From positions 1-54,007 of the IMG/VR virus record IMGVR_UViG_3300046011_010503: a DNA stretch of 54,007 nt. One strand, given 5' to 3'. The position numbers were made by a program, and so were the translations under genes. The notes under the pieces were generated by a model, which made no database searches, was not told the DNA's origin, and saw only the letters and a list, made by a program, of their open reading frames with translations. Shown here in pieces: positions 3,094 to 54,007 of the stretch; positions within the stretch are counted from its first letter, which is position 1, and each line of letters opens with the position of its first letter. Source of the DNA: a virus. Its lineage: Duplodnaviria; Caudoviricetes.

Positions 3094-4521
3094 TTACCTT
3101 ACGATTGTTATTAGTGCGCGTTTATTTGTATATGTGTAATAATTATATGGGCCTAAATCCCATTTAACGGTTGCAGATCTTTCATTGCCAAAAAAATCAT
3201 AATTGAATGTTTTTTCCTCTTTGGCTGTTATTATTAATCCGGTGTCCCTACACGGTGAGGTAGATTGCAATTTAAAATCATGCGCACCAGTATCTGCAAA
3301 AACAGGATACGCATAAAAGCCATTTTCCTCATTTTCTGGATGTTCGGATTTATAGTCAGTTAAATTTGTAAACCCCGGCAAATACCAAGATCGGTTTGCG
3401 TTATAATAATTATTATAATCAAAAACAAGTTTTGATTTAATTACTGTGTTGTAAATAGTAACAATTGAATTATAAAAAATATTATTGTTTATGTAGGCTG
3501 TGTCTATTCCGTTGGGGGCGGAATTAGATAAACTCAATCCACCAGCTCCACCATTCATGTTGCAAAAAACATTATTAAAAACATACACTGATCGTATTGA
3601 TTGATCGAATGGTGTAAAAATTACCCCATTGTACCATCCACCTAAACCATCAGACCCCGGTATTGGATTGTAAATTACGTTGTTATAAAAAAATATTGAC
3701 CCGCCACCCAAAACTCCTGGAAGTGGTTCAAAGTACACATTCTGTGTGTTGTTATAAAAAATGCAATTTTTGACTATAAACGTGTCAGGAAACGACATTA
3801 TTTGCATGCCGTCACCATGATTTTCAGTGCTGGTGTGGTTGTATATTCGGCAATTGCTAATTGTTATATTGTATCCACCATCTTTAATTCCATCGGTTTC
3901 ATTGTCGTGGATCGTACAACTGTCAACTAAAACAGTTCTAGCGGCATTTAATCGCAATCCATCAGCAGTGCATTTTGTTATTTCAGTTTTTTTTATAATT
4001 GTGTTTGTATCAGTCCCTAAGTACACACCTGCCTCTGACGCATCATTATACGCACAATAAAAACATTTGCAGTTTCTTATTGTAATATTTTTGCAATTTG
4101 TTATTAAAACACCGCTATTCAAGCAACTATCAAATTCCATTTTATCTATTATGATATTTTGTTTATTTTGAATTTTAACATTATTTGTAACTGTCCCTGA
4201 GTTTGACTGCGTTATAATTGCTAAACCATTATGGTTAGCGGTTTTACCAGTAGTAATTATTATGTTGCTATTGGTTGTCCCAGAAACACCAACTTCAAGC
4301 ATTCCAGAATATCGTTTTACAGTTGTTCCTCCAGAGATAAGCAGTGAATCACCAGCAACAACACCAGCACCACCCCAGACAATAGCAGAAAAACTCTGCC
4401 AAGCATTTGCCCATGACGTTCCATTGTTCGATCCTGAGGCGGCATTATCTACATACCAATTTGCCCCCCACCCGTTCACCACGCACAGTGCCAGCAACAA
4501 CCCTGCAATTATTTTCTTCAT
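3094..4521 (-). CDS. Right-handed parallel beta-helix (pectate-lyase-like) protein with Sec-type signal peptide; putative polysaccharide depolymerase
   Basis: MKKIIAGLLLALCVVNGWGA leader, YVDNAASGSNNGTSWANAW start, repeated I-x-N-C-x-I/F-x-x-N rungs, DFKLQSTSPCRDTG...WDLGPY C-terminal cap. Confidence 0.8.
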   Translation of the reverse strand: MKKIIAGLLLALCVVNGWGANWYVDNAASGSNNGTSWANAWQSFSAIVWGGAGVVAGDSLLISGGTTVKRYSGMLEVGVSGTTNSNIIITTGKTANHNGLAIITQSNSGTVTNNVKIQNKQNIIIDKMEFDSCLNSGVLITNCKNITIRNCKCFYCAYNDASEAGVYLGTDTNTIIKKTEITKCTADGLRLNAARTVLVDSCTIHDNETDGIKDGGYNITISNCRIYNHTSTENHGDGMQIMSFPDTFIVKNCIFYNNTQNVYFEPLPGVLGGGSIFFYNNVIYNPIPGSDGLGGWYNGVIFTPFDQSIRSVYVFNNVFCNMNGGAGGLSLSNSAPNGIDTAYINNNIFYNSIVTIYNTVIKSKLVFDYNNYYNANRSWYLPGFTNLTDYKSEHPENEENGFYAYPVFADTGAHDFKLQSTSPCRDTGLIITAKEEKTFNYDFFGNERSATVKWDLGPYNYYTYTNKRALITIVR

Positions 4522-18400: not shown

Positions 18401-19494
18401 GACTCAAGAACTGTGGCAGGTATTGAATAATAGGTCCCGTACTTATTGAGTATCTCTGGTTCGTCAAAACCTTTTTTTATTAGCGGATCTGCAAAGTTTC
18501 CTTTTTCTATCATCTGCCCGCCGACTACCGGGAGCGCTGCGCTTGCAACAAGTTGGGGCAACATGTCTGCGGCAAGTATGGAAACTGCCTTGGCTGTCTT
18601 AAGCGTATTTGGCAGGGTCCAGGCTTCTTTCTTCATAGCCCACTCTTGCGCCCAACCAGTAGAAGGGGCGGAGTCTGTCGCCTGGTTTTTTACTACATCA
18701 GACATAACTCCTTTGGCATATTTGACATAGTCATCGCCGATACCCTCGTCATAAATAGGACCGCCTTTAGCGTCAGCCTTTGCTCTTTTGTCGAGGATAT
18801 TAATGGCATTAGCCTCTTCCATGAACTGGACATTTTTCTTATAGCTTTTCTTAATGGCGTCAACGAATCCGGCACCCCACGACGGCTCTTCCAATTCTGT
18901 TGAAACAGCTTCTTTTGGCATATACTGCTTAACATTAATCCCCATACTTGCCAGGGTAATTGGCTCCACATTAGGTTGCGACTCAGCCGCTGACTTCTGC
19001 CCTAACGAATCAGAGAGCTTTCCAACAACCCGGTCCACATAATCTGCAGTATAGGAAATGCCATCATAAAACCGAGGTGTGCGCGGCACCTCAAATACTC
19101 CGGTTTTCTGCATGTTATTCCAGACCTCTTGCGCTCCACTGGGTCCGGCGTGGTAATATATGGCAGCAAAGCGCGGGTCTCCACCGTATTTTCTTAAACC
19201 GTCCTCCAGGTACTTTTGAGCGTACCGGCGCGACACCTCTGGTTTGCGCTCGTAGTCGGGATCAAACGGCTCCCCGAGGCTCGCTGCAATCTCTGGGGCC
19301 GTGTCCGGCATGATTTGATACTGTCCGCGCGCGCCTTTTGGAGACCGGGAAGAGTTGGGGTTATTTCCACTCTCAACACCCCCGATAACGTCCACCAACT
19401 GATCGGCGTAGGCTATGGGAGCAATCTGAGAGGCATTCTGCTTTGGATAGTATACAGAGGGATCATAACCAAGGAGCTCTTTGAGAGTCGGCAT
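6469..19494 (-). CDS. Giant polyvalent virion/ejection protein (4341 aa): SLT lytic transglycosylase, GGDEF, N6-adenine methyltransferase, two ADP-ribosyltransferase-like domains, HExxH zincin, EEIQSD-motif domain, helical C-terminus
   Basis: VESG...GARGQYQIMP...YHAGP (SLT); DLDKFKNVNDSHGHQVGD and GGEEF; FFPTP/VLEPSAGNG/NPPF; two WFGDWEND...SKVVD.NGKPLVVY(H/R)G modules; HEVLH; located after tail/ejection genes. Confidence 0.9.
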   Translation of the reverse strand: MPTLKELLGYDPSVYYPKQNASQIAPIAYADQLVDVIGGVESGNNPNSSRSPKGARGQYQIMPDTAPEIAASLGEPFDPDYERKPEVSRRYAQKYLEDGLRKYGGDPRFAAIYYHAGPSGAQEVWNNMQKTGVFEVPRTPRFYDGISYTADYVDRVVGKLSDSLGQKSAAESQPNVEPITLASMGINVKQYMPKEAVSTELEEPSWGAGFVDAIKKSYKKNVQFMEEANAINILDKRAKADAKGGPIYDEGIGDDYVKYAKGVMSDVVKNQATDSAPSTGWAQEWAMKKEAWTLPNTLKTAKAVSILAADMLPQLVASAALPVVGGQMIEKGNFADPLIKKGFDEPEILNKYGTYYSIPATVLESVSELVTVGAASASKLVKKIPTVEKITALATKNVANSVAKKVLVKAIGAVAGTAEAGLVEGTTEVTQQNLQDYLSVLAVRDAIKSNPSKAEKYQPIVDDLVKNGGQNLQTFVLAALPSMALHIGIGGVTRLTKKALPKTKPSDGSQVQQNTSPYTTMGETAPKVEFTPDGAELAKSPSQQSQTQRPSGQKLLSDFDIESPEAFYSLPQEDRGKIQSQLSDSEADRIIQAYEPSPEESGIITTPQPEGVANEKGQETQALLSPIGEPVVDNAPAPTDEFAPTAVQEGAAEAVPAKKVDRAIIVPDKFKALTPEEKDAEYAKLHKASETDQLTGLMNRTGIDRAAYEMGYSMREGDKNPPPVVLLDLDKFKNVNDSHGHQVGDDVLQSAGLVLSNRLNDIAFVGRHGGEEFLIIPKQGVSKDDILQRVESARSDLSSIPFNDGKLTGVSFSAGFGEGVKAADDQLYKAKDAGRAQTFEGDKKYEPVQNAVPGPGAAQGPASSTAAVGTEQKDGGSASAEPTATEPSAAVPAEATTAGTAEQTKSKTPIKRGKGSGSALPLEQLVKSGSTDGRVHAEDATHFKSIVERRDSAAGAVVSLSSRIDELSGQLEASKIISKYRNAFSQKDVNLATGGNSSDYRGKGAQSADVTMHDFFVENKDFTAKTGITLEDFNTPSDFVAFVKEFPTTPEVRSKIKAAKNEYEAAHKAYAEMSRQAGEYEKRYSKSTSEEPTLFQRKTGYDPNQADMFSGTGPSLAGLPLFNGENVAPPQQKKGPLVTGDLFEGTKAADTRTQEEKKIEAQQREKDAVRPAVSLQGLPMFDANEREAMITKQEDLFKNVPTVKEKEVPKKEAIVEPLAVQAQKSEKTEEKAFDPVIVPGKMTYSAFTETKKKLYNGKLSIDDFKMTFSKLVDSENNIKAELSTNKKDALQKIYSNYTSYMRPGENKSELISSIYHSMLSTYGLSRGIVHDFNGTYADSVKKIVDNTTQKDLDAFAEEVDKNTKEYIARRQATIKAIKNPETLAEFKTFLQYKKVEDLTPEQRRTYEDLTSTNIKEKRKEEKIDDSTVEKVDIGDTGMQLIETKHTQKGHDLFVVRLNNRVDREIYNDLNVKAKKLGGYYSSYKGNGATPGFQFTEKAQAEKFMALKSGDVSNADAVVEKETVKTVKRADKLRTNAEKIIAKADEGLNQDRQTNTARRAAMASSADAALNKQKRIGKTMLNIAAAIDAGEVKFLDGVSAKTHIEQLDGLVNEAKRNEVNLKYPTYSEREKHEGEPATEETIDKLNASKAYYPNLWAENLSDLFKKVESRPGSKAAIKKLYFRLVGKDSGIQVIKDQSEIDALEKLTSLLSENDAKYNQIVDALERHRRLKTMGFENPIMLSSALREYVKYRGKAPVVDKIKELERSLIGKNVGVDFFPTPKPVAEQMVRDAGITEGMKVLEPSAGNGNIADAIRAAGVKPDVVEISSSLRELLQAKGYNVVEHNFMDYNEGGYDAIVMNPPFGGGADIEHVRHAYDLLKPGGKIVAIMGEGAFFRSDRKASDFRDWLEEVNGSEEKLPQNTFQDKTLMNTTGVNARIVNITKPESSALFQRKEQSQIYTTEFKAWFGDWENDSENASKVVDESGKPLVVYHGTDKNFTEFRTGLNKVKGEQGMFFSTNPEIASKYSGYDELFPSKNIGSVKPVYLNIEKLKTVDLKGGKYGRAEIINKAKEEGFDGILLKNHYDAGGVQDQYVVFSPNQIKSATGNTGVFNPSNPDIRFQRGEQSPNDTQFHRSGRPTLSTEQPGKTADPFQFGAISALAKAAANQGVSIGPENIQVVDAAPQSAGFIGLAQRVFDVPIKTIKLTREAQKLSDMFNGFRHNGVVYLNDSSTDPSVYVVMHEVLHDIFAKQPYLKTRLMDFFQKQFTDSGNAAALREAEWYRSLMKSKELTQGMKDIGVEEVIANYLADSSTDPKFWDAVHAYSQPLARRLLQKIAEVIDRILRAAKVYRRTSEGWFKDAQAVRGEMVKMMAAAVRGASREEFYGAVREALFMRDGSGQQQDQTRTAEFKRWFGDWENDPENASKVVDENGKPLVVYRGEHGKVRTKVRTTHLVPTTDEKSLLEEIGDVPSSLIQTALGSVSFVNNPETAATYAESPNNRELSKTAEQPRVIPAYLSIRNPVIQNLDDPFVEMGDIVKAIGIDKAIKIAIKHSYQIELTNNWDENFSEKYSSVEELLRKSPKRIKELYLDAYFVFDDIDAVRYFKDAGYDGAIHMGNGESMDDIEYKVFSTTQIKSATGNTGAFDPSNPDIRYQRNNNTLNDQNARTLAAEYGLSFVGMQEGVPGYPGTALFNDKNGNTFAARTESELESRVSEMTDGVLFQRPIADTFYSPTLKAVQALKQDRGTGDQFFAMISKAPGVKESEWKWMGLDDFLKGKQSVTKKEIEDFVRQNQVTVQEKYNKQGDKKIPFEGLSDEEVAEHYENYMDQEIPLGATRQELIDEMVEANENDMGGERAEVETKYQQYTLPGGENYREVLLTLPLKVVRPATEKSFKVVENGYKSSHWEEPNVIAHTRLDDRTGPNGEKVLFVEEIQSDWARDVRDKGVRQNPVNELPSDYTFNEVVVKEAPNGWSDTRIDVKDGSGNIVWKEYNGTIESAKKNALIDLNHNMKLKGVPNQPFLKNWQELTLKRILRMAAEEGYNRVAWINGEQTADRYNLAKVAESINHSKNADGTYNFHVTDKIGRDILDRMNVPESELAGIFGKDVANKIVNRDGEFDKRRDYSFFTNRGSAVGEVFKDGRWYIKWQDGSESGTYLSKEDAAREADHVTRNYVLSPEHNRPKILKGTDLKIGGEWAHNLYDVQIPKFFEKYGKKWGTKVEPVSLGRDAMPMPTQDKYRGGYFITQDGPHFDTIEEAREWSIKNSPTQQSITITDEMRDSVMHEGQPLFARRKQELLPDGSVPKKKYVSTKLRRPKAEQIAAQEQIEDLTQYIKDRFKVPDIEGVTEERRPLFEKHWDNIATRAELEKELMQYEMYSDAVNFKYHHEGLIKKELKRKEIQQKIYDYARKINLVGEPRNQVDTLMLRTTGTSRNFFKALNIMDTVMEKRLQAKALEEVRLKFDATRKRIAAARAGRQPAPWTAEHTEAVEKYLDQFMFMSAKEEKAYEEAMASLEQNKENFDPEDALGYDSKELAALTEMVKKNLLGMSSSDLLNVMAELTQIERTGKTAKMLADAQAAAKLASDGFFAGVEIRRVTKNSEKSLAERSLGRKERGLARNAKEFFMDTMDPQRVIEWITGNFTEAGRREASVFKQNTWNKLRDASVKSVDSMIKATKHIREIHKPLVDAMKSLPLKYAIKAEFTDGVNDRKIPLPGRVETHELTLNEMMFVYANSKNEGNILHLFGSGWTREGMLQVENTIPEVAKDVVDKMHRYYDVVQYPKMNGVFRRLFGIDMPRIENYFPIRNLLSAKVEDSMLSEMLARFSNKSSVQKGMTKARQGSAAPFREMDYMGVVFANLRQSEHFVANAEAVRDVRKFLNYDDVAQALANRDKDFDAKAWSNDFLKRMAYGKVEAIRSDAVAKTADALRYYYSCYALGWNPKTWVKQWSSLFVGGKYVENKARLAQSALKMMAQRGNMIEDIKSKSLFMKNRNSRFEREIQEMFDKHESTMFLNTTAEVMNKIRQVSMWGISTSDMISSSILWDAKYTEEINKGIPQEQAVRNADEAIEKSFAGGGLAYLTRGQTSQGLTRYLTMFTSDLAKAMNTQYETMRTARQNGLSKTAIAVMMTSLIPAALIFTVDTFDPEKFKDDPEGFLGYILSQIYGAFPLFNQIGDGLYKNLVADPIRKLRGAPTKPLFQGSSSIKIPWMDIADELYSAAGAVKKAIGTKEGDDVGEAVGKAVKASVGAAGMLTGLLPRQPINTAQAAYGLITGTEDDWRRLLYSAGSLKDMSISGGVARGILGNKEISAEQYGEMSDAQREIVDQKIQKIIEKKERLDELKYSRE
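11535..12295 (-). repeat. ADP-ribosyltransferase-like module, copy 2
   Basis: EFKRWFGDWENDPENASKVVDENGKPLVVYRGE...EYKVF...QIKSATGNTGAFDPSNPDIRYQ. Confidence 0.7.
13135..13625 (-). repeat. ADP-ribosyltransferase-like module, copy 1 (conserved flanks shared with copy 2)
   Basis: EFKAWFGDWENDSENASKVVDESGKPLVVYHGT...FFS...QIKSATGNTGVFNPSNPDIRFQ. Confidence 0.7.
13670..14180 (-). other. N6-adenine DNA methyltransferase domain of the giant protein
   Basis: DFFPTP, VLEPSAGNG (motif I), VMNPPF (motif IV, NPPF at 13909-13920). Confidence 0.85.
16980..17430 (-). other. GGDEF diguanylate cyclase domain of the giant protein
   Basis: DQLTGLMNR, DLDKFKNVND.HGHQVGD, RHGGEEF (GGEEF at 17176-17190), SFSAG, ADDQLYKAK..GR. 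Confidence 0.92.
19010..19390 (-). other. SLT (lytic transglycosylase) domain of the giant protein; boundaries approximate
   Basis: Catalytic ES motif (GVESGN), GQYQIMPDTA, YHAGP. Confidence 0.85.
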
Positions 19495-38849: not shown

Positions 38850-40544
38850 CTACCTGAAAAGCGTTGGCAAATACTTCTTAATTGTCAATATGTCCTGGTT
38901 GTACTTCCCGCAAATTTCCATCATGCGCTGTAGCTCTTTATCGCGCATCATGTCTGCTAATAAAATTGAATCCTCTGCAGACATGCTTCCCCATGCCTGT
39001 TTTGCTTTTGCGCAGTGGCGCACAGTGCCCAGGTGCGTGCCGTGGTTGCGCCATAGTTTCGAAACTCCGTGCGGAGGAAGTGTCAAACCCGACATAACCA
39101 CAACATCTCCAAGCGTCCACTCGTCATGTCCGTACTGCAGCAGAAATTCTGGATGCATGGTTATTCGCATAATTTCCATATCACGGGCTTCTTTCGTGAT
39201 TTTCCACCATGCCTTATTAACAAAGTGTATGGCTGCCATGCGAACATGGCAACTTAATTGCTTATCTCCATACTTGAAAAATTCTCCCTGACGGTCATCA
39301 ATTATCCAATTTTCGTAGAATCTGGTCCGGTCGCGCTCCAGGTGGGTTGCATGCTGGTCAACAATGCTGTATTCTTCCTTGCGCATCATCATATCAATGT
39401 CGGCAATGTAGGTGTAGTCTTGTCCCTCATCCCAATCATACAGAAGACGCATTGATGCAGCCTGCAGGCCGGTTAAAATTACGGGGAGCTCTACAATCTC
39501 GATCCCGGGCGGCGTAATAGCCCGCAGCTCATCAGGGTACTTTCCGGACACAGCTACTTTAATCTTCTGTGCAATAGGCTGCAGGGTGGCGTAGTGTGCG
39601 AATAGCGGGATGTATGCAGCGTACTTCTCGTCAACCATGGTTGCGATTAAGAGTGAGCCATCGTGCCGGTCGAATGGCGGGCGCTTTTTCTTGGGAGGCT
39701 CGACCAGCTCCACACTCGGCACGCGCTTGGGCTGGGCTGCATGATAGAGCTCCCATGCGCAGACAATTGGCAACCCCTGCACGTCGGGAGGCAGATCGCT
39801 TATTCCAACCTGTTTTACCCGCTTCCATGCAGTTCTGGCCTGGTTAACCCAATGTAAGTCAAAACCGGATGGCAATGCGTTCCATACATCCTCAACCCAA
39901 TCCCGGGTTCCTCGCATTGGCTCACCATCAGTTTGTGTTGATGATGTAACTTTTCCAATTACATCACCCAAGGAATTTCTCACGCCAGTGAAATGGTCCA
40001 TTTTGACACCAGGAATAAAGAGCTTATTGATTATTTTTGACCCTCGAGGTCCGGACATAGCAACACCAGGACGGACCAGCACGGTTGGGCGGCATGGTTC
40101 GGGTGGGAATACCTGGTAGAATGGTGATTTGAGGTAGGTGTTAATTTCGCAGCAGTATGCGTCTGCAGGGTGCTCTTCAGCGTATCTTAGTAGCTGTGTG
40201 AGATCCATGTGCCGCCATACCTCGTCAGTATCAACAATTAGATAGAGAACTGCTTGCGGGTAGCGCGCTGCAGCTATTTCCAGTGCCTTTAAATATTGCA
40301 GGTCTTGGTCAGGGCAGTCGAAATTCTCCTCATAGATTTTAGACAGATAATCAGCTGGCCCCCAATCAGTGCGCTTTTCGAAGTACTTCTCCACTGCTGC
40401 TTTAACGGTGTTTCCGCACTCACCGTTCCAACCCAACTCTGAGTGCAGCAGTATAACGCCTGAAACGTGAGGGAGAACAGAGTCAAGCATCGCCTGAACA
40501 AATTCGTGCCCGCGGAATGTTTTGCAAATTGCTATGACTTCCAT
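38850..40544 (-). CDS. Two-domain glycosyltransferase (GT-A folds)
   Basis: N-terminal LIVDTDE (GT2-like DxD); C-terminal YIADIDM...HDE (second DxD domain). Confidence 0.7.
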   Translation of the reverse strand: MEVIAICKTFRGHEFVQAMLDSVLPHVSGVILLHSELGWNGECGNTVKAAVEKYFEKRTDWGPADYLSKIYEENFDCPDQDLQYLKALEIAAARYPQAVLYLIVDTDEVWRHMDLTQLLRYAEEHPADAYCCEINTYLKSPFYQVFPPEPCRPTVLVRPGVAMSGPRGSKIINKLFIPGVKMDHFTGVRNSLGDVIGKVTSSTQTDGEPMRGTRDWVEDVWNALPSGFDLHWVNQARTAWKRVKQVGISDLPPDVQGLPIVCAWELYHAAQPKRVPSVELVEPPKKKRPPFDRHDGSLLIATMVDEKYAAYIPLFAHYATLQPIAQKIKVAVSGKYPDELRAITPPGIEIVELPVILTGLQAASMRLLYDWDEGQDYTYIADIDMMMRKEEYSIVDQHATHLERDRTRFYENWIIDDRQGEFFKYGDKQLSCHVRMAAIHFVNKAWWKITKEARDMEIMRITMHPEFLLQYGHDEWTLGDVVVMSGLTLPPHGVSKLWRNHGTHLGTVRHCAKAKQAWGSMSAEDSILLADMMRDKELQRMMEICGKYNQDILTIKKYLPTLFR

Positions 40545-45618: not shown

Positions 45619-47744
45619 CCACCTTCTGCTTTGGTTTGCGTTACTGACTCAGGTGCGTTTAATTTATTCAAAACATTTGTTTTTCTTATTGAGTATGACT
45701 CAAGCTTCAAATCAGTTTTTTCCATATGCCCTCGCTCTTTTAAATACCCAACCGCATTGCAAAGTGCCCTGCAAAGCCCAAACCCTTTTGCTGCAGGTCG
45801 CCCAGCCTCAATAATCCACGACGACATTTGTCGGGCAGTCTCCCCGCAGCGAGAATTAATGATGACCAGCTTATTGAAGATCATTTGAGAAATCAACGTT
45901 ATTGAGCCTGGCTCGTCATATCCAATATTGTCTACAATATTTATCTTTTTTTTCAGATATCCATTTGACATACTGTCTTTGGTGTAGTTGCCACTAGAGC
46001 TGTTTGTTTTGGCAGCAAACATCAGCGGGCTGCCAAGCCAAGTGTGCTTTTGCATTGTTTTTAAATGACCCTTAGACACCGATCTCACGTTTGCCTCAAC
46101 AACAGGGACCACAATATCGGGCATAGACGTCGGGTTTACCACTTCACAATAAACCCACAATTGTCCGGCGTTTGCGTTCCACATTGCCAGTATTATTGAT
46201 GTTGTGAAATCATCCTCAACCCATTGACTGCATATCAGCTTTGAATGAGAGGAGAGGTTTGCGAAATTAACCGCAAAACTCATCGTTTCCCCGTTATAAA
46301 TAGACCACACATGAGCAATATTTGGAGCGTGCGTTTCGTAGGCTACAACCATGGCGTCCGCAATATCGTCGTGAGCGGCACCAGGGACAAGACCAACCTC
46401 TTCTAAAAAATCAGTGTTCCACGACGCTCTTTTTAGGTAAACGTTCCCAGCCTCAAAAGCAGCCTGCAAAACTTCCCACTTCGATCTTTTATCCCCTGGC
46501 AACTGCAATTTTTTGACGACTCGCAGTCCGTGCAGGGCGTTTGACAGTGTGGTGTAGCAGTCTTTGTATCCTCCAAAAGCTTCAACTCCGATTGTTATCG
46601 CACCATCAGCAATGGCGGTAGCCTTGATTGTTTTGTCTCTTTGCGGTGCATCCCACCGGCCACGGACCATGTCATCGATATAAACGGTTGGTATTTTTTC
46701 CCCGTTAGGCAGCTGCTGCCACCGGACACCAAGTTTGATTCCGACCGTATAATCCGGATCCTCTTTGTCTACGGTCTTTTTCGTGCTAGCCAAATCCCAT
46801 CCTCGGCAATACACAATATCCCTAGGCATCTGAGCCGGCTGGATATATTCAATCCGGTCCGTTTTGAAAAATGCCCCTTCACGTCCGATCGGCTCACACT
46901 GCAGCAATCCGGCAACCGAGTACGCCGGACGAGCAAACTGCCCCCGGTACCACTCGAGAGAATACCGCTCTGGAAACAAATACCCGCTAGGATAAACGTC
47001 AGATCTTGCTGGGAATTTTAGCTCTTCGAATTTTGGGAAATCTGGATTTTCTTTCATATTTCGGGCAATTCGCCCGAACGGATCATCGATATGCCATGGG
47101 GTTGCTAGAATAATCATTATGTGGACCGGAGCCAGACGGGAGCGAATATCATCCTCAATGCTCTCCCACACCTTATCACGGATCCGAGAGCTCTCAGCCT
47201 CTTCACGACCCTTGAAAAAATCGTCTACAATGGCCAGGGAGCCACCTTTACCGGTAATCGATCCACGGATACCAACCCAGCGAGCCTGCCCCTGGCGCCC
47301 CTCGACGCCCCAATTTTTAACACTAGCATCAGTGCTTGATAGTTTTACTCCCGGGAACACCGCGCGATACCGCTCATCGAGCATTATGTTGCGGGCAAAG
47401 CGAGAGAATCCCTCAACCAGCGAGCTCGTGTATGCAGCAACAATTATCTCCTCGTCGGGAAACAGCCCGAGAAACCTCGGGGGAAAATAGCGGGAAATAA
47501 TATCACTCTTACCGTGGCGAAATGGAACCTTGACAATTAGGTAGGTGCTCTTCCCATTGCGAAAATCTTCTATCGCCTTGTCCAGTCTATCGCATATTTT
47601 TTGCGTATGGTATCCGACAACCATCGGGCGAGAGCGAACCTGCCAGAGATATTGCATAAAGTAGAGCTGTGTCCGGCGGGCGAGCTCACCTTTAATGGCT
47701 TGCGTAGTAGGCATTGTGATATTTGGGTTGATTTTCTGCATCAC
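45606..47744 (-). CDS. terL: Terminase large subunit with extra C-terminal domain
   Basis: PFRHGKS (Walker A), IVDD (Walker B), ATPWH.DD, GWDLA, DYTVG, HDDIADA. Confidence 0.92.
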   Translation of the reverse strand: MMQKINPNITMPTTQAIKGELARRTQLYFMQYLWQVRSRPMVVGYHTQKICDRLDKAIEDFRNGKSTYLIVKVPFRHGKSDIISRYFPPRFLGLFPDEEIIVAAYTSSLVEGFSRFARNIMLDERYRAVFPGVKLSSTDASVKNWGVEGRQGQARWVGIRGSITGKGGSLAIVDDFFKGREEAESSRIRDKVWESIEDDIRSRLAPVHIMIILATPWHIDDPFGRIARNMKENPDFPKFEELKFPARSDVYPSGYLFPERYSLEWYRGQFARPAYSVAGLLQCEPIGREGAFFKTDRIEYIQPAQMPRDIVYCRGWDLASTKKTVDKEDPDYTVGIKLGVRWQQLPNGEKIPTVYIDDMVRGRWDAPQRDKTIKATAIADGAITIGVEAFGGYKDCYTTLSNALHGLRVVKKLQLPGDKRSKWEVLQAAFEAGNVYLKRASWNTDFLEEVGLVPGAAHDDIADAMVVAYETHAPNIAHVWSIYNGETMSFAVNFANLSSHSKLICSQWVEDDFTTSIILAMWNANAGQLWVYCEVVNPTSMPDIVVPVVEANVRSVSKGHLKTMQKHTWLGSPLMFAAKTNSSSGNYTKDSMSNGYLKKKINIVDNIGYDEPGSITLISQMIFNKLVIINSRCGETARQMSSWIIEAGRPAAKGFGLCRALCNAVGYLKERGHMEKTDLKLESYSIRKTNVLNKLNAPESVTQTKAEGGWMV

Positions 47745-48436
47745 CCAGATACCTTTTCTGCCAAAGCAAGAAATACTTTCAGCTCTTCCGAAGACAGCTT
47801 TGACAAATCCATATTATTGAGTCCGACCCCTGCAGCTGCAACAGGGGCAGCATCTTCTTTAAACATACCCAAGTGTTTTCCCATCAGCTCAAGCGGTCCT
47901 TTTTTGTCGTGCAGCTCAAGCTTAATTGTTTGCCCGCATATTTGGCCAAGTGGGTTTATATCCTGTTTTACTTCAACTTTTTTAATTGCCCGGGTTGCAG
48001 TTCCCAGCATCTGTGTCGGCACAACTTTTACAGCATACAAGTCAGCCGAGTCAGTTGTCTCATCTCCATTTTCGCTGGGTGCGGCGGGCCCCCAACTCAA
48101 ATAGTTGCCCATATCTGAAAATCCGCAGGCTGCCAGGTGCGCTAGAACTTTGTCCGTCGTTGGAGTCATCTCTTCTATATTGCTCTTTCTCCAACTATCT
48201 ATTCTGTGAATAAGCTCAGTATTTACGCTTTGAGTATGCAGCATAGATTGAGCTTTATCATAAGCTGACCTGAAAATCTCGTTTGGCCACATTCTACGAG
48301 CAACCTCCGAGAGGTTTCCTTTTGCCTGGATGTAAAACTCAACGAATTGTTTTTTTTCAGCTATAGCAAGAAGTGCCTTTGGTCCACACACAAAGGGCTT
48401 GCTTTTTGTTTTTTTTGATGCGGGCTTTTTAATCAT
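47741..48436 (-). CDS. terS: Terminase small subunit
   Basis: FVEFY...NLSEVARR HTH, VLAHLAACGFSD, IKLELHDKKGPLELMGKHLGMF; ATGA overlap with terL; start at 48436 preferred (48517 possible). Confidence 0.85.
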   Translation of the reverse strand: MIKKPASKKTKSKPFVCGPKALLAIAEKKQFVEFYIQAKGNLSEVARRMWPNEIFRSAYDKAQSMLHTQSVNTELIHRIDSWRKSNIEEMTPTTDKVLAHLAACGFSDMGNYLSWGPAAPSENGDETTDSADLYAVKVVPTQMLGTATRAIKKVEVKQDINPLGQICGQTIKLELHDKKGPLELMGKHLGMFKEDAAPVAAAGVGLNNMDLSKLSSEELKVFLALAEKVSG

Positions 48437-48573
48437 CTGCGCTTCCTGCGCTTTAGTTAAAACGGATACTCGAAGGTGGCAAGGGGTTGATAAAAAAGTA
48501 CCACCTCCGAGGTCCATGAGTTCTTAATATACTAAATAATTTTATAAAAGCTATAATTATTTTTATTTTTTCA

Positions 48574-48602
48574 TTGCAAAACCATATCTTTATCGCTATA
48601 TT
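48574..48602 (+). promoter_or_regulatory. Sigma70-type promoter of the divergent plus-strand operon
   Basis: TTGCAA-17 nt-TATATT, followed by AGGAGG and ATG 48633. Confidence 0.7.
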
Positions 48603-48632
48603 AACATTAATCAATCACACTCAGGAGGGCAC

Positions 48633-48773
48633 ATGCTTTACATGCTCATAACAAACACAGCGACTGACAAGTTCTTTTTTATTCCATGGAATGGATTGTC
48701 ATCAATTTCAGACAAGATTGCTGAGAGGCAACCAAAGTACATAACCTTTGAAGAAGTGGTGGTATCCTTTTGA
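48633..48773 (+). CDS. 46-aa hypothetical protein
   Basis: Strong AGGAGG RBS; MLYMLITNTATDKFF... Confidence 0.55.
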   Translation: MLYMLITNTATDKFFFIPWNGLSSISDKIAERQPKYITFEEVVVSF

Positions 48774-48880
48774 TTTCGAAAAACAATAACGCTGACTGCC
48801 TCATTGTCGGGCTTTTCTTTCTCTTGCTTGCGGGAGCCGTTGCTGTAGGATACGCAATTGGGACCATATTGCCCTTATGA
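48770..48880 (+). CDS. 36-aa single-TM peptide
   Basis: TTGA overlap; LIVGLFFLLLAGAVAVGYAIGTILPL. Confidence 0.4.
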   Translation: MISKNNNADCLIVGLFFLLLAGAVAVGYAIGTILPL

Positions 48881-48991
48881 AATCTAATAAGGGAATTACC
48901 AGCTGTTGGTATTGCGGGACTCGTGTTGGGTTACAGCAGGGGTTTAGACATAAGTATAAAGTTTGCGCATATCACGCAAGAGAGGAGGAGA

Positions 48992-49162
48992 ATGAAAATA
49001 TTGAGCTGCAAAGAATTTGCGGAACGATTGGGAGTCAGTGCAGTGAGGGCTCGCCAGCTGTGTGCAGCGGGTAGAGTTAAAGGTGCAGAAAAAAAAGCGC
49101 ATGACTGGATTATTCCAGCCGGCGCTAAAGACCCAAGACGAAAGGTAAAGTGTGCAAAATAA
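48992..49162 (+). CDS. Excisionase/HTH_17-like DNA-binding protein
   Basis: GGAGGAG RBS; LSCKEFAERLGVSAVRARQLCAAGRVKGAEK...WIIP. Confidence 0.8.
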   Translation: MKILSCKEFAERLGVSAVRARQLCAAGRVKGAEKKAHDWIIPAGAKDPRRKVKCAK

Positions 49163-49355
49163 AAACAATCTATCCGAATGCGCTTCATGTTTAGATAAAA
49201 CTAACTGTGAACTAAATTCTGGTTACTGCAAAAAACCAAAATACTTCAATGAAACTTTACTGATTGAAGACGAGCACACCGGCATACAAACAACAACGCA
49301 GTACCTGGTAAAATTCAATGGCGGACCAATGGGCTTAAGGAGGGGAGGTGATTAG
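49152..49355 (+). CDS. Hypothetical protein
   Basis: Overlaps HTH gene stop; CxxC...C...C. Confidence 0.45.
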   Translation: MQNKNNLSECASCLDKTNCELNSGYCKKPKYFNETLLIEDEHTGIQTTTQYLVKFNGGPMGLRRGGD

Positions 49356-49791
49356 CCCAGGCGTTACATACTTTTTTTCCAGAAACGTCACTCATCATAG
49401 AAGCTGAAACCCCCATTAGGTGACACTTTTTGTATTTATTTACCTTACATCCAAAAAAACAATTTCCGCAATTTTCATGTCCATCAGCTGTTCGATAATT
49501 CTTTTCCTGCTTAAACCGAGTGTATGGGCTTTTTGCCGGATCCACTATTTTAGTGTCTCCGCCAAACAAGTCTGGACCAGTAACTTCATCCTTTTTTTTA
49601 TAACTCTTTTTTATTTCACGACGCATCTGCAATGATCCGTCTTGATTGTCCCATACCGATCCACACGGAGAATCGTCAAAACCCGAGATAACAAACCAGT
49701 TAGGCACAACTACTTTTCCTGACTGAGTTACCAACTCTATTGAGTGTTGATTTTTTTTAACTATGTGATAAACGGTGTTTTTAAGAACCAT
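49315..49791 (-). CDS. Hypothetical protein with C-terminal 4-Cys cluster
   Basis: YR...CGNC...KCHL...VCNAW. Confidence 0.6.
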   Translation of the reverse strand: MVLKNTVYHIVKKNQHSIELVTQSGKVVVPNWFVISGFDDSPCGSVWDNQDGSLQMRREIKKSYKKKDEVTGPDLFGGDTKIVDPAKSPYTRFKQEKNYRTADGHENCGNCFFGCKVNKYKKCHLMGVSASMMSDVSGKKVCNAWANHLPSLSPLVRH

Positions 49792-49981
49792 GATTAACGC
49801 TGCGCTCGCTCAAATCAGTAAAATCATATTTTTCACGATGTAAAACACTTAACTTTGGTCGCATCTGCAACCCTTTTTTATTGTAATCAACCAGCTCCAT
49901 ATGAGAGTCAGGTTTTGGCGCTTTGCTAACTGGCATGAACCTTCCAGCAACAACCTCTTCCTCGTATTTTAGAGTCACCAT
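49781..49981 (-). CDS. Hypothetical protein
   Basis: Overlapping start/stop coupling with neighbours. Confidence 0.5.
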   Translation of the reverse strand: MVTLKYEEEVVAGRFMPVSKAPKPDSHMELVDYNKKGLQMRPKLSVLHREKYDFTDLSERSVNHGS

Positions 49982-50400
49982 TTAACCGAATCCCCATCCT
50001 TACAAAACCCAGGCACCGGCCACTTCATAAATTTAACCTTGCCACCCTTTACCCATGCCAAGTACGTTTCAGTGCCTTGTATTTTTGAGTGACACGTCAA
50101 TGTTGCAGCTTGCCCAATGCCTCCCATGGTGGGTTTTCGAAGGCAGGACCACGGGAGATTTCCGGAATCATGTTTTTTAACTTCAACGAGAACGGATCCA
50201 CCTTTCGAGTTGATTGCTCGGATATCTCCGGATACTGTTTTTTTTGCGTAGTATTTTACACCTTCAGTTGTAAGCTTGGCTCTCAAGGCGGTATTTACTT
50301 GCTCAATAAACAAATATCCAGCAACTCTCATTTGAGCTGCAACAATCTCCTCTCCAACCGATCCACTTTTTTGACGAAGTTTTTGAAAATTAATAGCCAC
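49975..50400 (-). CDS. PD-(D/E)xK nuclease, Holliday-junction-resolvase-like
   Basis: G..GEE, SGDIRA...VLVEVKK, Q...L. Confidence 0.7.
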   Translation of the reverse strand: MAINFQKLRQKSGSVGEEIVAAQMRVAGYLFIEQVNTALRAKLTTEGVKYYAKKTVSGDIRAINSKGGSVLVEVKKHDSGNLPWSCLRKPTMGGIGQAATLTCHSKIQGTETYLAWVKGGKVKFMKWPVPGFCKDGDSVKW

Positions 50401-50674
50401 AATCTGACCACACCTTATCCATTCGAATGTTTTTGTGTGATAGCATCACATCATAAGTATCGCCTTTTTTCCAAAACATTTCCTTTACAATCCACCCTCG
50501 CTGCAATAACAAGCGCTCTTCTCGCCGCATTAATCTAGCCTTTGCGTATGATTTTATTTTAGTACCGGGTTCTGGTCGAAACCCTTTTACTAATTTAATG
50601 AACAACCGTTTTTTCATATTACCTCTTACTACTTTCATATTTACGCTCATTATCGATACCCCTGACATCCGCAA
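50390..50674 (-). CDS. Hypothetical basic protein
   Basis: In operon; start uncertain. Confidence 0.45.
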   Translation of the reverse strand: MRMSGVSIMSVNMKVVRGNMKKRLFIKLVKGFRPEPGTKIKSYAKARLMRREERLLLQRGWIVKEMFWKKGDTYDVMLSHKNIRMDKVWSDCGY

Positions 50675-50943
50675 TAAAAATCGTCATGGGACTGCAGCGG
50701 CATTGCCCGGAACATGTGTAATATTTTTGTGGACTTTTTTGCGTTATTACAGCTTGTGCATTTTGCCATTCTAGGAGTCGCTCTTATGTTTACAATTCTA
50801 GTGTGCTTTGGCGGGTTTAAACATGACGGACACACGCTTCTTCTAAACCCATTAACGCTTTTTCGCTCACACTCATTCATTAATCCAAACCAACCACAAG
50901 AGCATTTTACAACAAGGGTTTGCGTTTTCCAGTCTATGCTCAT
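50650..50943 (-). CDS. Zn-finger protein
   Basis: CSCGW, CPSC, CTSC, DDFYCGCQGY; ATGA overlap. Confidence 0.6.
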   Translation of the reverse strand: MSIDWKTQTLVVKCSCGWFGLMNECERKSVNGFRRSVCPSCLNPPKHTRIVNIRATPRMAKCTSCNNAKKSTKILHMFRAMPLQSHDDFYCGCQGYR

Positions 50944-51506
50944 AAAACACTACTTTCTGGAAAAATTATTTTTCTTAACGCATCACCGTAGACTCTGAGC
51001 GCTCCTAATGCAGTATTGAATTTATCAATATCCCTTATCTCACACACAGACGTTTTACGTCCCCACCGGCGCTGACCCTGGGAAAGCTTGCCGCCACCAG
51101 TTTTAACGTCCCCCTGGTATGTTAGTGAGAATCCATTGCCTATTGGATAGTAGACAATGAGATCTGGTTTGTTCTTGAACGCCTCGGCAATCTCCTGTTT
51201 GATTTTTAACCCCTGGGCAGTCCCCATTGCCCGGTCAATTGCGATAGATAATTTGTCATCTGGGTTGTAAAACTGAATTAACCGGTAGATTAAATCTGGG
51301 ATATGCAGATAGTCCATACCGGGCTCAGACTGAATCAGCTCGACGCATTTGGAGAGCAAGTCGTTGTGGTCTGGTATTGCGACTGCGTTTCCCTCACAAT
51401 CTGTTTCAGCTGCTTCACGCCTTATTTTAGTAGGAGACTTTTTTAACCGAATTGGTTTTGGGAATGCGACAAATGATGATGGTTTGGGCTGTTCGTATTT
51501 TTTCAT
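50940..51506 (-). CDS. VRR-NUC-like nuclease
   Basis: HIPD, PDLIV, DVKTGGGKLSQGQRRW (D in place of the usual E of ExK). Confidence 0.6.
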   Translation of the reverse strand: MKKYEQPKPSSFVAFPKPIRLKKSPTKIRREAAETDCEGNAVAIPDHNDLLSKCVELIQSEPGMDYLHIPDLIYRLIQFYNPDDKLSIAIDRAMGTAQGLKIKQEIAEAFKNKPDLIVYYPIGNGFSLTYQGDVKTGGGKLSQGQRRWGRKTSVCEIRDIDKFNTALGALRVYGDALRKIIFPESSVL

Positions 51507-51706
51507 TTTGGCTTTTTTCTTAACTCAAGTTCGAATTTAGCAATCTTACTGATAGTTACAGTTTGTTTTACTCTTCCAGCTCCGTCGCACACGCCGCAGC
51601 GATCGTCCCACACGTCCCACTCTCTATGGTGATAATTGGTCAGCTCTCTATTTTCAACCTTACCAGTACCTTTACAATGTTCACAAAGTATTATTTTGAC
51701 TTCCAT
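51503..51706 (-). CDS. DnaJ-type CxxCxGxG zinc-finger protein
   Basis: CEHCKGTG...CGVCDGAG; start re-set to MEVKII. Confidence 0.7.
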   Translation of the reverse strand: MEVKIILCEHCKGTGKVENRELTNYHHREWDVWDDRCGVCDGAGRVKQTVTISKIAKFELELRKKPK

Positions 51707-51936
51707 TTTTTTATTTCTTTCAGAATAATGTTTGTGCAATAAGCCATCATGTGCAATATTTCTCTCTGATCGTAGCAGTGTGGGGCCCTGTGTGCATTTC
51801 CAGAAAAGGTGCATGCACAAATTTTACAAATCCAATGCCCTTTATCTTTTGGATATCCAAGCCCATGTTCATAAAATTCAAGATCGTGCGTTTCAAATTT
51901 GCACGCTTCGCATTCTTCTGGTTTTTCGTTATACAT
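51691..51936 (-). CDS. Small Zn-binding hypothetical protein
   Basis: CEAC...CKIC. Confidence 0.55.
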   Translation of the reverse strand: MYNEKPEECEACKFETHDLEFYEHGLGYPKDKGHWICKICACTFSGNAHRAPHCYDQREILHMMAYCTNIILKEIKKWKSK

Positions 51937-51979
51937 TTTATTATTCCATCAACGACCGATAAATGTTTGAAGTGGAGCG

Positions 51980-52072
51980 CTACATATTGTAAAGGTAAAT
52001 AAACCCTAACACTATAGGAGCTATTAATAGAGCAATAACCATTATTTGAGGCCAACCGTGTAAATCTTCCAT
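51980..52072 (-). CDS. 30-aa single-TM peptide
   Basis: GGAG RBS; MEDLHGWPQIMVIALLIAPIVLGFIYLYNM. Confidence 0.4.
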   Translation of the reverse strand: MEDLHGWPQIMVIALLIAPIVLGFIYLYNM

Positions 52073-52146
52073 AAAATTTAGCTCCATTTTAAACCTTATT
52101 TGTTGGTTGATGTATGCCGAACTTCCATTTGAAGCGGTACCCCGTT

Positions 52147-52464
52147 TTAAGCTGCGCCAGTTGTACGAAGTGCGCTGGCTTCTGCTGTTTCCTGCGGCGC
52201 GTCTTCGTATTTATGTATTTCTTTTTCCCCGTTTGCCCATCCGTCTTCAAAATCAACAACAGGCGAAGAAACCATTTTTGCAAACGGCAAAACATCGCTC
52301 CAGTTCATGTTGTTTTGCGCCCAATCAATAAAGTCAAAATCATCGTAATTATCAAGGTATTCATCATCAATTCCGTTTTCTTTCATATTATCTTCAACAA
52401 TTTTTAATGGAATTTCCCATTTTGAATTGTCTGGCATTTCTACGATCATTTTTCTTTTAAACAT
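52147..52464 (-). CDS. Cassette A gene: acidic hypothetical protein
   Basis: GAGG RBS; MPDNSKWEIP...DWAQNNMNWSDV; flanked by inverted repeats. Confidence 0.75.
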   Translation of the reverse strand: MFKRKMIVEMPDNSKWEIPLKIVEDNMKENGIDDEYLDNYDDFDFIDWAQNNMNWSDVLPFAKMVSSPVVDFEDGWANGEKEIHKYEDAPQETAEASALRTTGAA

Positions 52465-52531
52465 TTAATTCCTCGCTTTTGAATTTGTATTCGCGCCGCC
52501 TCAAAGTTTCCAAAGCCAGCGCATTTTGTAC

Positions 52532-52578
52532 AACGTGGGCCGTACGCACCATCGTTTTAATGTGGTGCTACGGCAGTT
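52532..52578. repeat. attC-like site 2
   Basis: AAC gtgg GCCGTA c GCACCA-11 nt-TGGTGC TACGGC a GTT. Confidence 0.8.
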
Positions 52579-52754
52579 GGTTGATGTTCCGGTTTTGCTT
52601 CCACAGCATTCCGTGGCGCATGGTCGGAACAAATTGTGACTTTAAAACTCCCACCTGCAATTTTTCTTTTAATACAATCGAGAGACGCCGCACACGTTGG
52701 GCACAAATCTTCACCGCCTAAAAAAGCCTTGAGATCCTCCATGTTTTTTCGCAT
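52557..52754 (-). CDS. Cassette B gene: small Cys-containing protein
   Basis: GAGG RBS; CPTC...C...C; flanked by inverted repeats. Confidence 0.6.
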   Translation of the reverse strand: MRKNMEDLKAFLGGEDLCPTCAASLDCIKRKIAGGSFKVTICSDHAPRNAVEAKPEHQPTAVAPH

Positions 52755-52801
52755 TTAGCGCCACCTCAAAGTAAATGGTTTTCAAAACCGGAATTGCAAC
52801 C

Positions 52802-52881
52802 AACGGTTTGCGCAACGCATGCTGATTGCGCCTATAATATTTTTACTACAAATCAAGCGCAATTTGCATGCTTGCGCTGTT
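52802..52881. repeat. attC-like site 3
   Basis: AAC ggttt GCGCAA c GCATGC tg ATTGCGC-loop-GCGCAAT tt GCATGC TTGCGC t GTT. Confidence 0.8.
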
Positions 52882-53595
52882 AGGTGCTGTATGGCAAATT
52901 TCCATAGTGTTCTGCGCGGGGCTGTATTGCGCCCAGGACGGGCGCTCTTTGAATTGCTTTATGAACAGCCACTTGCGAGACCTATTAACCCATACGCCAC
53001 CCATGCCTTTTGTCTTTCCGCGCTGCTTGACTACGCCATCGACAACGTAGTCTTTCTTTGCCGCAGTCATTCCGAGTGCCGTGAATCCACTGGCCTTGTA
53101 TATCGTACCGCAATGACCGTCGCTATCGTCAGCGTATGTCACGATTCCCTTTACGTATGCCATTTTCTGCAACAACCGAATAGTAACTCCGATCATTCTG
53201 CTTTCTGAATTTCTTGGGCACTCGTCTTTCAACACCAACCTCTTGATTTCCCACCACAGAGCTTGAGTGTTTCGATTCCAGTACCCTTTCAAGTCGGTCG
53301 CGTTTGGCGTGCCGTAAGAAATAGCGCCGACAAGGTGGCCATCGAAAAAAGCTCCAAACGACAGAGTGGCGAGAAATCCTTGGTCGCCAAGATAGTGCCA
53401 CTTACGATACGCAAGCGCGGCACAGGAAGAATTAACAACCTTAAAAACAAGGTGGAGCGGAGAGGTCGGAGTCAAACCGCCATCTGTCTCTTGGAATAGA
53501 GACTGTGCTATCGCTGCACCATCTCCGCATGTATTTGTTTTCGGCGCACGACGCTCCGTGTCTTGCCCCGCGCCTATAATTTCATAATTTGCCAT
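52846..53595 (-). CDS. Cassette C gene: Mom-like GNAT-fold DNA modification protein
   Basis: GG.TPTSPL, WHYLG, EIKRL...PRNSES, VTYAD...H.GTIYKASGF; start re-set to 53595, inside the cassette boundary. Confidence 0.8.
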   Translation of the reverse strand: MANYEIIGAGQDTERRAPKTNTCGDGAAIAQSLFQETDGGLTPTSPLHLVFKVVNSSCAALAYRKWHYLGDQGFLATLSFGAFFDGHLVGAISYGTPNATDLKGYWNRNTQALWWEIKRLVLKDECPRNSESRMIGVTIRLLQKMAYVKGIVTYADDSDGHCGTIYKASGFTALGMTAAKKDYVVDGVVKQRGKTKGMGGVWVNRSRKWLFIKQFKERPSWAQYSPAQNTMEICHTAPNSASMQIALDL

Positions 53596-53604
53596 ATTGC
53601 ACCT

Positions 53605-53652
53605 AACGTCCGGCACACGCCGGATGCCTACTGGTTTACGGCTGTGCCTGTT
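53605..53652. repeat. attC-like site 4
   Basis: AAC gtcc GGCACA c GCCG-16 nt-CGGC TGTGCC t GTT. Confidence 0.8.
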
Positions 53653-53870
53653 GTTTGCAGTTGGCAGCGACTCCGCAGCTTCCTTTCCGCAGCCCAACCA
53701 CGGCAACATTCCGCACTACAGAATGAGTTTGAGTGTGTGTGCGGCTTGCCACAACGAAGGCACTTCCGCTCTGATTTTATATAATCCATAGACCGGTCTC
53801 TTGGCCCGCTGCCCCAAGGAAAGCTACCCAACATTGACGCTAAGAAAGCCGCCCCTATTAAACCACGCAT
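53628..53870 (-). CDS. Cassette D gene: small protein with CxxC...FCSxxC zinc finger
   Basis: CLRCGK...FCSAEC; AAGGA RBS. Confidence 0.6.
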   Translation of the reverse strand: MRGLIGAAFLASMLGSFPWGSGPRDRSMDYIKSERKCLRCGKPHTHSNSFCSAECCRGWAAERKLRSRCQLQTTGTAVNQ

Positions 53871-54007
53871 CAGAACTTCCTTTCTTGGCTGCGGAACTAT
53901 AATGGCGCTCTCGCTGCCAATTGAAAACAACGTTTGATAAACTGGTGCTGTAAAATGAGGCGTCCAGCCGGAGAGCCGAAGCTCTGGTCCGTGTAAACTC
54001 CCTCGTT

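Follow-up and report, generated by a model that had tools for sequence, protein, structure and literature searches.

The window analysed here, a whole linear viral contig of IMG/VR of 54,007 bases (IMGVR_UViG_3300046011_010503; CheckV completeness estimate of 76%), carries in its last 1.5 kb, which is the upstream end for its minus-strand genes, an array of hairpins closed by AAC and GTT boxes and associated with small genes. These hairpins are very probably folded-DNA recombination sites of the attC kind that bound mobile, promoterless gene cassettes; the family to which they belong mirrors the shape of integron attC sites, and the array lacks a recombinase of its own.

Three complete sites (A, B, and C; Table 1) share on the plus strand the consensus AAC-[4–5 nt]-6 bp-bulged C-stem...stem-6 bp-[1 nt]-GTT that had been described in the initial annotation. 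A strict scanner for this architecture, run on both strands of the 54,007 bases, retrieved only sites A, B, and C, and its stem anchors numbered 10 in the window vs. 0–4 in 20 shuffles, 14 of which had none. The DNA fold z-scores of the three sites ranged from -2.5 to -3.6 against shuffles, on either strand. All the window genes being on the minus strand, it is a G that bulges on the coding strand, again as annotated. Site D, truncated by the contig end, shows on the coding strand its GTT-side half (GCACCA-G-TTTATC-AAAC-GTTGTTT), the other arm lying beyond the end of the contig; since half of the site is missing, it reaches only 7.7 bits (53920–53958) with the covariance model R1 described below. 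A contig from a public run (X1, record 1, 4,737 bases) matches positions 51400–54007 without a difference and extends 337 bases beyond the end of the window, so that the rest of site D exists in public data. The last site of the array is long and degenerate, an inverted repeat whose pairing was established by eye; it was outside the R1 training set and scores 21.6 bits (E-value 6.6e-5). A 30-aa hydrophobic open reading frame (ORF), MEDLHGWPQIMVIALLIAPIVLGFIYLYNM, lies wholly inside its variable loop (51980–52072, minus strand). A further cassette-end box, TCGTACAAC, pairs with GTTGTACAA after site A at five of the six variable bases and may, from its sequence, be the remnant of a site. With inverted AAC...GTT boxes closing an imperfect hairpin, as in attC, with five sites within 2.1 kb and with no recombinase in 54 kb, the array would qualify as a cluster of attC sites lacking integron-integrases (CALIN) if its sites are counted as attC-like.

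Table 1. Recombination sites, box, and cassette genes of the array (positions in the window; R1, covariance model of the family).
Feature	Position	Strand	Sequence or product	Basis
Site A, core	52532–52578	+	AAC-G-TGG-GCCGTA-C-GCACCA...TGGTGC-TACGGC-A-GTT	Read from sequence
Site A, full extent	52523–52584	-	Coding strand TCAACCAAC-T-GCCGTA-GCACCA-CATTAAAACGA-TGGTGC-G-TACGGC-CCAC-GTTGTACAAAAT	R1, 45.1 bits; training member
Site B, core	52802–52881	+	AAC-G-GTTT-GCGCAA-C-GCATGC...GCATGC-TTGCGC-T-GTT	Read from sequence
Site B, full extent	52793–52887	-	Coding strand GCACCTAAC-A-GCGCAA-GCATGC..GCATGC-G-TTGCGC-AAACC-GTTGGTTGCAAT	R1, 69.1 bits; training member
Site C, core	53605–53652	+	AAC-G-TCC-GGCACA-C-GCCG...CGGC-TGTGCC-T-GTT	Read from sequence
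Site C, full extent	53596–53658	-	Coding strand GCAAACAAC-A-GGCACA-GCCG..CGGC-G-TGTGCC-GGAC-GTTAGGTGCAAT	R1, 61.9 bits; training member
Site D, truncated by contig end	53925–54007	-	Plus strand AAACAAC-G-TTT-GATAAA-C-TGGTGC at 53925–53948	
Degenerate long site, last of the array	51943–52110	-	TCAACCAAC-A-imperfect stem, A bulge on GTT-side arm...CGGTC-GTTGATGG	
Cassette-end box, no recognizable hairpin after it	52160–52168	-	TCGTACAAC	Read from sequence
Cassette gene between D and C	53628–53930	-	Up to 100 aa, Cys-rich zinc-ribbon-like C-terminus	ORF list
Mom-like gene	52846–53595	-	DNA modification protein, 249 aa	Pfam PF25680 Mom, E-value 1.1e-29; phrog_1384, E-value 3.5e-31
Cassette gene	52557–52754	-	65 aa, no family match	ORF and family searches
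Cassette gene	52147–52464	-	105 aa	phrog_17928, unknown function, E-value 2.6e-13

Along the coding strand, each heptamer that begins with the GTT of a site is an exact reverse complement of the heptamer that closes with the AAC of the site after it (GTTGTTT of D with AAACAAC of C, GTTAGGT of C with ACCTAAC of B, and GTTGGTT of B with AACCAAC of A), and the two boxes of one site pair poorly. Complementary neighboring ends are the signature of integron cassettes, where the excised circle restores a perfect box; likewise, in the class 1 array of a P1 phage used as a positive control, aadA2 GTTGGGC pairs with cmlA1 GCCCAAC. Using the Mom-like gene as bait we gathered 3 IMG/VR loci and 129 metagenome relatives, with 80 loci kept, in which a relaxed scanner that did not demand the bulge detected 162 sites on the strand of the genes vs. 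27 on the opposite one. This scanner also gave 0–5 matches per 54 kb in shuffles and hit three unrelated places in the window; being non-specific, it led us to rely on junction complementarity and covariance models. Among 57 non-redundant pairs of neighboring sites, 30 matched at four of four bases and 17 at six of six, whereas boxes within one site did so in only 7 and 2, respectively, of 123 sites, and at most 11 pairs matched at four of four with shuffled partners (57 pairs, 1,000 trials). Ten of the 30 perfect junctions are the GTTAGGT/ACCTAAC of the fished family itself, the other 20 being made of many different boxes. In an independent set of IMG/VR loci, 104 of 154 neighboring pairs matched at four of four among the matches listed.

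All-against-all blastn comparisons of the loci, read on the R1 strand, located the region of exchange. Alignments comprising upstream DNA plus the hairpin and ending at GTT numbered 49 in the set of Mom and methyltransferase loci and 27 among the listed matches of the IMG/VR set, against 5 and 2, respectively, that started at AAC and ran downstream; in example pairs, loci were similar through ...CGTT and diverged from the next base or two. Therefore, the hairpin moves with the DNA upstream of it and the exchange occurs at the GTT end. The spacer purines at positions -4 and -3 before GTT differed in 6 and 8, respectively, of 19 non-redundant pairs, compared to about one for stem positions. The integron cassette logic is thus present, with complementary ends, a site that moves with its upstream gene and an exchange at GTT, narrowed here to RRAC-GTT. 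These two purine positions of the long spacer accordingly differed in around one third of site pairs that were otherwise 88–97% identical, due either to fast mutation or to exchanges that often start upstream of them.

An alignment of 54 sites contained two stem segments, 90 and 78% paired, flanked by AAC and GTT boxes that were invariant in all 54; double changes in the stems amounted to 238 vs. 105 ± 8 in shuffles (0 of 500 as high). Sites homologous to site B, with compensatory changes, also follow the related genes in three other loci (L002, L003, and L004). The covariance model built from this alignment, R1, retrieved 80 matches from 14 long loci at E ≤ 0.01, all of them on the gene strand. 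For comparison, we made our own canonical attC model, R2, from 11 Vibrio attC sites and a hand-written structure, limited to Vibrio-type sites because MAFFT misaligned the class 1 arms. R2 recovered all 16 Vibrio attC and four class 1 attC in the right orientation (19.4–21.0 bits), and it found none of the 22 family sites in L001, L089, and L031 at E ≤ 10 on either strand. Reciprocally, R1 found no class 1 attC (best score 9.4 bits, for cmlA1) and gave a marginal 13.4 bits to one Vibrio attC. In line with the expectation that standard attC models would miss such sites, R2, a Vibrio-trained model distinct from the published ones, did not find them.

One script was used to fold both real attC sites and the new ones, on the gene strand, and the central spacer was recorded as AAC side × GTT side. 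The class 1 sites aadA2 and cmlA1 have a 5 × 6 spacer, their AAC-side arm carrying single-base bulges at 3 and 9 bp; that of aadA1 is also 5 × 6 by sequence, the minimum free energy structure pairing part of it (2 × 2, then 1 × 2), and its bulges are likewise on the AAC-side arm. The 6 of 11 Vibrio-type sites that fold as one hairpin have a 3 × 3 spacer (nominally 7 × 6) and an AAC-side arm that is bulged at 5 and 8 bp. In the 83 new sites, instead of the spacer of approximately 5 and 6 nt of attC, 77 have 1 × 4 (38), 2 × 5 (22), or 1 × 5 (17), and the GTT-side arm carries the bulge, located at 6 bp in 41 sites and at 5 bp in 10; the unpaired base is G (31 sites), A (21), T (2), or C (1). In attC, according to passages of Nivina et al. 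(2016; PMC5027507), the extrahelical bases lie on the bottom strand opposite the cleaved AAC, a rule that we confirmed on the folded class 1 and Vibrio sites; in the new sites, the arm with the bulge adjoins the exchange point whichever strand is considered, and the bulge is a purine on the coding strand. The non-canonical geometry proposed in the initial annotation was therefore borne out in both spacer length and bulge-bearing arm, and the canonical values it quoted agree with our class 1 folds (5 × 6, bulges on the 5' arm of the gene strand) and with those passages. Its view that the sites are inverted relative to their ORFs is right for the strand of the bulge and in comparison with most of the family, but not for the order of gene and site or for the exchange at the far GTT, which are classical.

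The 11-nt loop of site A, CATTAAAACGA, is also present in Polaribacter phage P12002L, and a pattern of the boxes plus this loop matched at least 120 IMG/VR contigs, some tens of these being estimated as chance matches. Among the matches listed, R1 detected sites at E ≤ 0.001 in 46 of the first 100 IMG/VR loci and 59 of 120 loci contained two or more sites on one strand. Site lengths in IMG/VR fell, among the listed matches, into three tight classes near 46, 85, and 123 nt, with steps of ca. 38 nt. The sites of P12002L, between methyltransferase and Mom-like genes, score 19.5–20.9 bits with R1 and at most 12 bits with R2. This phage also contains an "empty" site (39696–39718) reading ACACAAC-A|C-GTTAGCCACAAT, with abutting boxes and no hairpin between them; boxes ca. 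20 nt apart and without a stem also occur in Polaribacter phage Freya (see below), and these empty sites may be products or targets of recombination. Sites were also seen at 11852–11937 and 15412–15523 of locus L095 (G004:C15; R1 29.9 and 16.6 bits), flanking a DUF3024 gene and a gene for an 833-aa GHL15-like product. The contig looks cellular (FeoB, aminotransferase), has a tyrosine recombinase gene 7.5 kb away and comes from a metagenome-assembled genome labeled Thermoplasmatales, of unverified binning, so that sites of the family may also occur in cellular genomes.

The boxes, the asymmetric spacer, and the 11-nt loop are common to the window and the wider family, but gene strand and bulge differ. 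The longest cassette ORF runs with the R1 reading in 16 cases and against it in 107 among the listed IMG/VR matches, and in 35 and 4, respectively, in the window plus its fished relatives (25 and 4 without the fished family). Likewise, the GTT-side arm is bulged in 6 of 133 IMG/VR sites, 71 have no defect within 9 bp, and 47 have a symmetric mismatch (all among the matches listed), vs. 55, 18 (no defect in the stem), and 7, respectively, of the 81 sites from the window and relatives. The unequal spacer is found in both sets; it is therefore a trait of the whole family, and the bulge a trait of the subfamily of the window.

In 6 of the 120 listed IMG/VR loci we found a gene for a tyrosine recombinase of 265–275 aa, at 269–1,614 nt from the array, divergent from the reading of the sites and co-directional with the cassette genes. 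These recombinases fall below every NCBIfam cut-off; their best match is XerA/integron integrase (170–195 bits vs. a cut-off of 220), and they match the integron integrase model TIGR02249 in two pieces (151–159 bits vs. a cut-off of 265). Compared to IntIA and IntI1, they retain the catalytic motifs and lack two insertions, including the stretch with LPDALERKYP of IntI1. Their relatives from cultured phages, at 38–40% identity, are the proteins annotated as integrases in Cellulophaga phage Ingeline and in the Polaribacter phages Freya and Leef; in passages of Bartlau et al. (2021; PMC8776804) the gene is interpreted as indicating a temperate lifestyle, and Freya genomes of 44.0–48.9 kb are listed without an explanation of this range; "integron" is not a word used in that paper. 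Genome comparison showed that Freya_10 is 4,942 bp longer than Freya_1 through an extra block, with about a dozen small genes, located directly upstream of the recombinase gene, which points to activity in cultured phages. On its two sides the phages share 100 and 99.8% identity, with breakpoints right after ...TTTACAAC (...ACAAC) and ...TGCTAAC; on the other strand, the exchange is at the GTT beside a fixed ...GGGGT|GTT junction next to the recombinase gene, whose box region reads ...GTTATAGGGGT|GTT. The sites of Freya belong to a different subfamily, some lacking a hairpin between the boxes, and score weakly with R1 (11.1 bits at best), so the evidence from this phage rests on the breakpoints and not on R1.

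At least five sites make up the array, which occupies the upstream end of a run of genes on a single strand, ahead of terminase in this lake phage. The coding strand of a cassette reads TT(R)... gene ... NNNNNNAAC-hairpin-RRAC-G, with strand exchange taking place inside RRAC-GTT; an excised circle would consequently close a perfect AAC/GTT box of 7–9 bp. Spacers are very unequal throughout the family (1–3 nt on the AAC side, 4–6 nt on the GTT side), and the subfamily of the window is distinguished by a single purine bulge located 6 bp into the arm that adjoins the crossover, not the far arm. We infer the enzyme, the strand that it cuts, and the role of the bulge from these comparisons: the likely enzyme would be a short (ca. 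270 aa) Xer/IntI-like tyrosine recombinase without the extra domain of IntI, adjacent to the array in some related phages, and for the array of the window it would act in trans, supplied by a co-infecting phage, by the missing quarter of the genome, or by the host. The presence of such an enzyme beside related arrays is compatible with the distinct recombinase specificity suggested in the initial annotation. Xer-type enzymes without the IntI extra domain do act on folded DNA in the CTX phage, whose attP hairpin is recombined by XerCD through a single-strand exchange, although in that system the whole phage is integrated at dif and there are no arrays, cassettes or AAC/GTT boxes. By analogy, the short recombinase could in principle recombine folded sites. 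More tentatively, and with somewhat less than even confidence, we propose that the sites represent a second, phage-borne lineage of integron-like gene capture, with a short Xer-type enzyme that would act on folded sites of an asymmetry mirroring that of attC, and in which the purine bulge would switch the strand and, hence, the direction of the cassette genes; the bulge occurs in 55 of 81 sites whose genes run along the site reading vs. 6 of 133 with genes against it among the listed matches.

Several observations weigh against the recombination-site interpretation. The window does not show the layout of a complete integron, with IntI and its additional domain, attI and the cassette promoter (Pc) beside the array, since it has no PF00589 match, and no match to PF00589, PF00239, or PF01797 was found in the window, in three other viral records, or in G004:C2, a 168-kb contig with an array that runs across both of its ends; the array of the window is thus an orphan. 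Phmmer with two integrase seeds also found no integrase in loci L005–L087, the recombinase search in metagenome loci having covered the extracted stretches only. The recombinase found in IMG/VR adjoins arrays with genes on the opposite strand and mostly bulge-free sites and, being found only with the other polarity class, it may not be the enzyme of the subfamily of the window. A single cassette family served as bait for the loci behind all 57 junction pairs and the 81 sites of the first set. Since the scanner that selected the sites demands a stem, their pairing is in part by construction, although the compensatory changes are not, and the variable spacer positions -4 and -3 place the exchange only within RRAC-GTT, without fixing its exact point. 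Finally, no excised circle or deletion variant of the array was seen: all or part of the stretch is present in eight public lake-water or metagenome runs, three of which may be its source, and contigs of four lake-water runs aligned to it contained no joints; as contigs drop rare variants, this speaks neither for nor against excision.

Were the sites ordinary attC, their cassettes would derive from a bacterial integron and be served by the classical IntI of the host. The AAC/GTT boxes, the complementarity of cassette ends and the gene-then-site order are indeed as in integrons, and the marginal R1 matches to a Vibrio attC and to that of cmlA1 point the same way; furthermore, as stated in parts of Qi et al. 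(2023; PMC9892861), IntI1 recombined one of the two predicted attC of P12002L, a carrier of family sites for which "divergent directions" were noted. However, spacers and bulge arm are unlike those of class 1 and Vibrio attC folded identically, R2 scores none of the 22 sites, the adjacent recombinases, where present, lack the defining insertion of IntI, and the genes of most family members among the matches listed are on the strand opposite to that of integron cassettes, which together make this explanation very improbable. Similarly lacking in credibility is the view that the hairpins are repeats spread by other means (REP/MITE-like [repetitive extragenic palindrome or miniature inverted-repeat transposable element], homing or hairpin copy-choice), their modules being swapped by homologous recombination, as has been proposed for the promoter/stem-loop cassettes of T4-type phages. 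Homologous exchange would suit the Mom and methyltransferase genes, with their nearly identical ends around different middles (see below); also, one hairpin body was found with different upstream boxes, and the spacer bases are partly unlinked from the hairpin body. Nevertheless, breakpoints fall in the same 4–7 bases, searches of the window, the other viral records and G004:C2 gave no Y1 transposase, and the stem sequences differ between neighboring sites, which leaves little homology for recombination; we judge it highly unlikely.

A role at the RNA level is the least probable of the alternatives, and we give it minimal weight. The hairpins would be terminators or RNase III-type processing signals between small upstream genes, like the processing hairpins between small genes of the T7 early region, and they are indeed placed between small co-directional genes or at their ends, with folding on the coding strand. 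But a terminator scan flags none of the sites, no run of Ts follows the hairpins as it would in intrinsic terminators, and Rfam yields only chance-level matches, none at the sites, at E ≤ 10 in positions 47000–54007. Such a role predicts neither complementary cassette ends, nor breaks of homology at C-GTT between unrelated phages, nor an adjacent recombinase, and in most of the family, among the matches listed, the same sites are on the non-coding strand.

Compared to the attC of class 1 and Vibrio integrons, the attC-like sites described here share an imperfect hairpin closed by AAC and GTT, of varying sequence and conserved structure, with lengths of 46–166 nt; one gene per cassette followed by its site; an exchange at GTT; and cassette ends that pair. 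They differ in the spacer (1–3 × 4–6 vs. 5 × 6 or 7 × 6), in a bulge that in the subfamily of the window is single, mostly a purine, 6 bp in and near the crossover and that is absent in most of the family, in end repeats of 8–9 bp vs. 7, in the lack of IntI, and in the lack of matches with a canonical covariance model. For clusters of attC in phages the literature offered only Qi et al. (2023), and nothing was found on a variant geometry or a dedicated short recombinase, which is not proof that these are unpublished. The CALINs in the consulted parts of that work (PMC9892861) are similarly integrase-free arrays in virulent phages with DNA methyltransferase cargo, P12002L being common to both studies, but were identified with standard attC models and their sites taken as ordinary attC; neither variant geometry nor a dedicated recombinase appears in its section 3.4 and other passages seen. 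Thus, a phage family of integron-like sites with a different build is apparently undescribed; new here are a geometry measured against real attC, the existence of two polarity classes that are linked to the bulge, and the region of exchange.

Integrons are the textbook case of structure-specific DNA recombination, for which the extra domain of IntI and the extrahelical bases are thought essential. A large natural family with the cassette logic of integrons, sites of a different shape and, in relatives, an enzyme without that domain offers a natural comparison that could reveal which features of attC and IntI are truly needed for strand choice and hairpin recognition. It also suggests that many phages shuffle small accessory genes through a dedicated site-specific system, the cargo seen including Mom-like and methyltransferase genes, Lar and radical SAM proteins, and surveys based on IntI and standard attC models probably undercount such arrays. 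The cultured Polaribacter phages Freya and P12002L make the system amenable to testing at the bench.

All the long ORFs of the window are on the minus strand, including genes for the small and large terminase subunits, a portal protein and a tail spike, with the small genes of the array ahead of terminase; a single ORF of 4,341 aa (6469–19494, minus strand) lies amid the structural genes. The large terminase had no relative in IMG/VR, and a DNA comparison of the 6-kb region with 50,697 phage records gave no match. An all-against-all blastp of the long loci for a common neighbor gene returned only the query family and its antisense frames. As for the cassettes, the gene between sites D and C, whose true start is probably an internal ATG, gave only weak matches, to DUF2116 (E-value 0.059) and to an HNH phrog (E-value 5e-4), and the Mom-like gene extends from 12 nt past the GTT of site C into site B, where it ends. 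This gene and two unrelated DNA methyltransferase genes, with SPPY and DLPY motifs, are nearly identical in their first ca. 75 and last ca. 45 bases and differ in the middle. The shared ends (52870–52920 and 53540–53612 in the window, 905–985 and 1700–1770 in L002, and 3170–3260 and 3975–4020 in L003) include 40 bases identical in three contigs, encode MANxEIIGAGQDTERxAPKTNT and SPAQNTMEICHTAPN, and recur in other contexts in lake-water contigs; these sequences point to constant ends with swappable catalytic cores.

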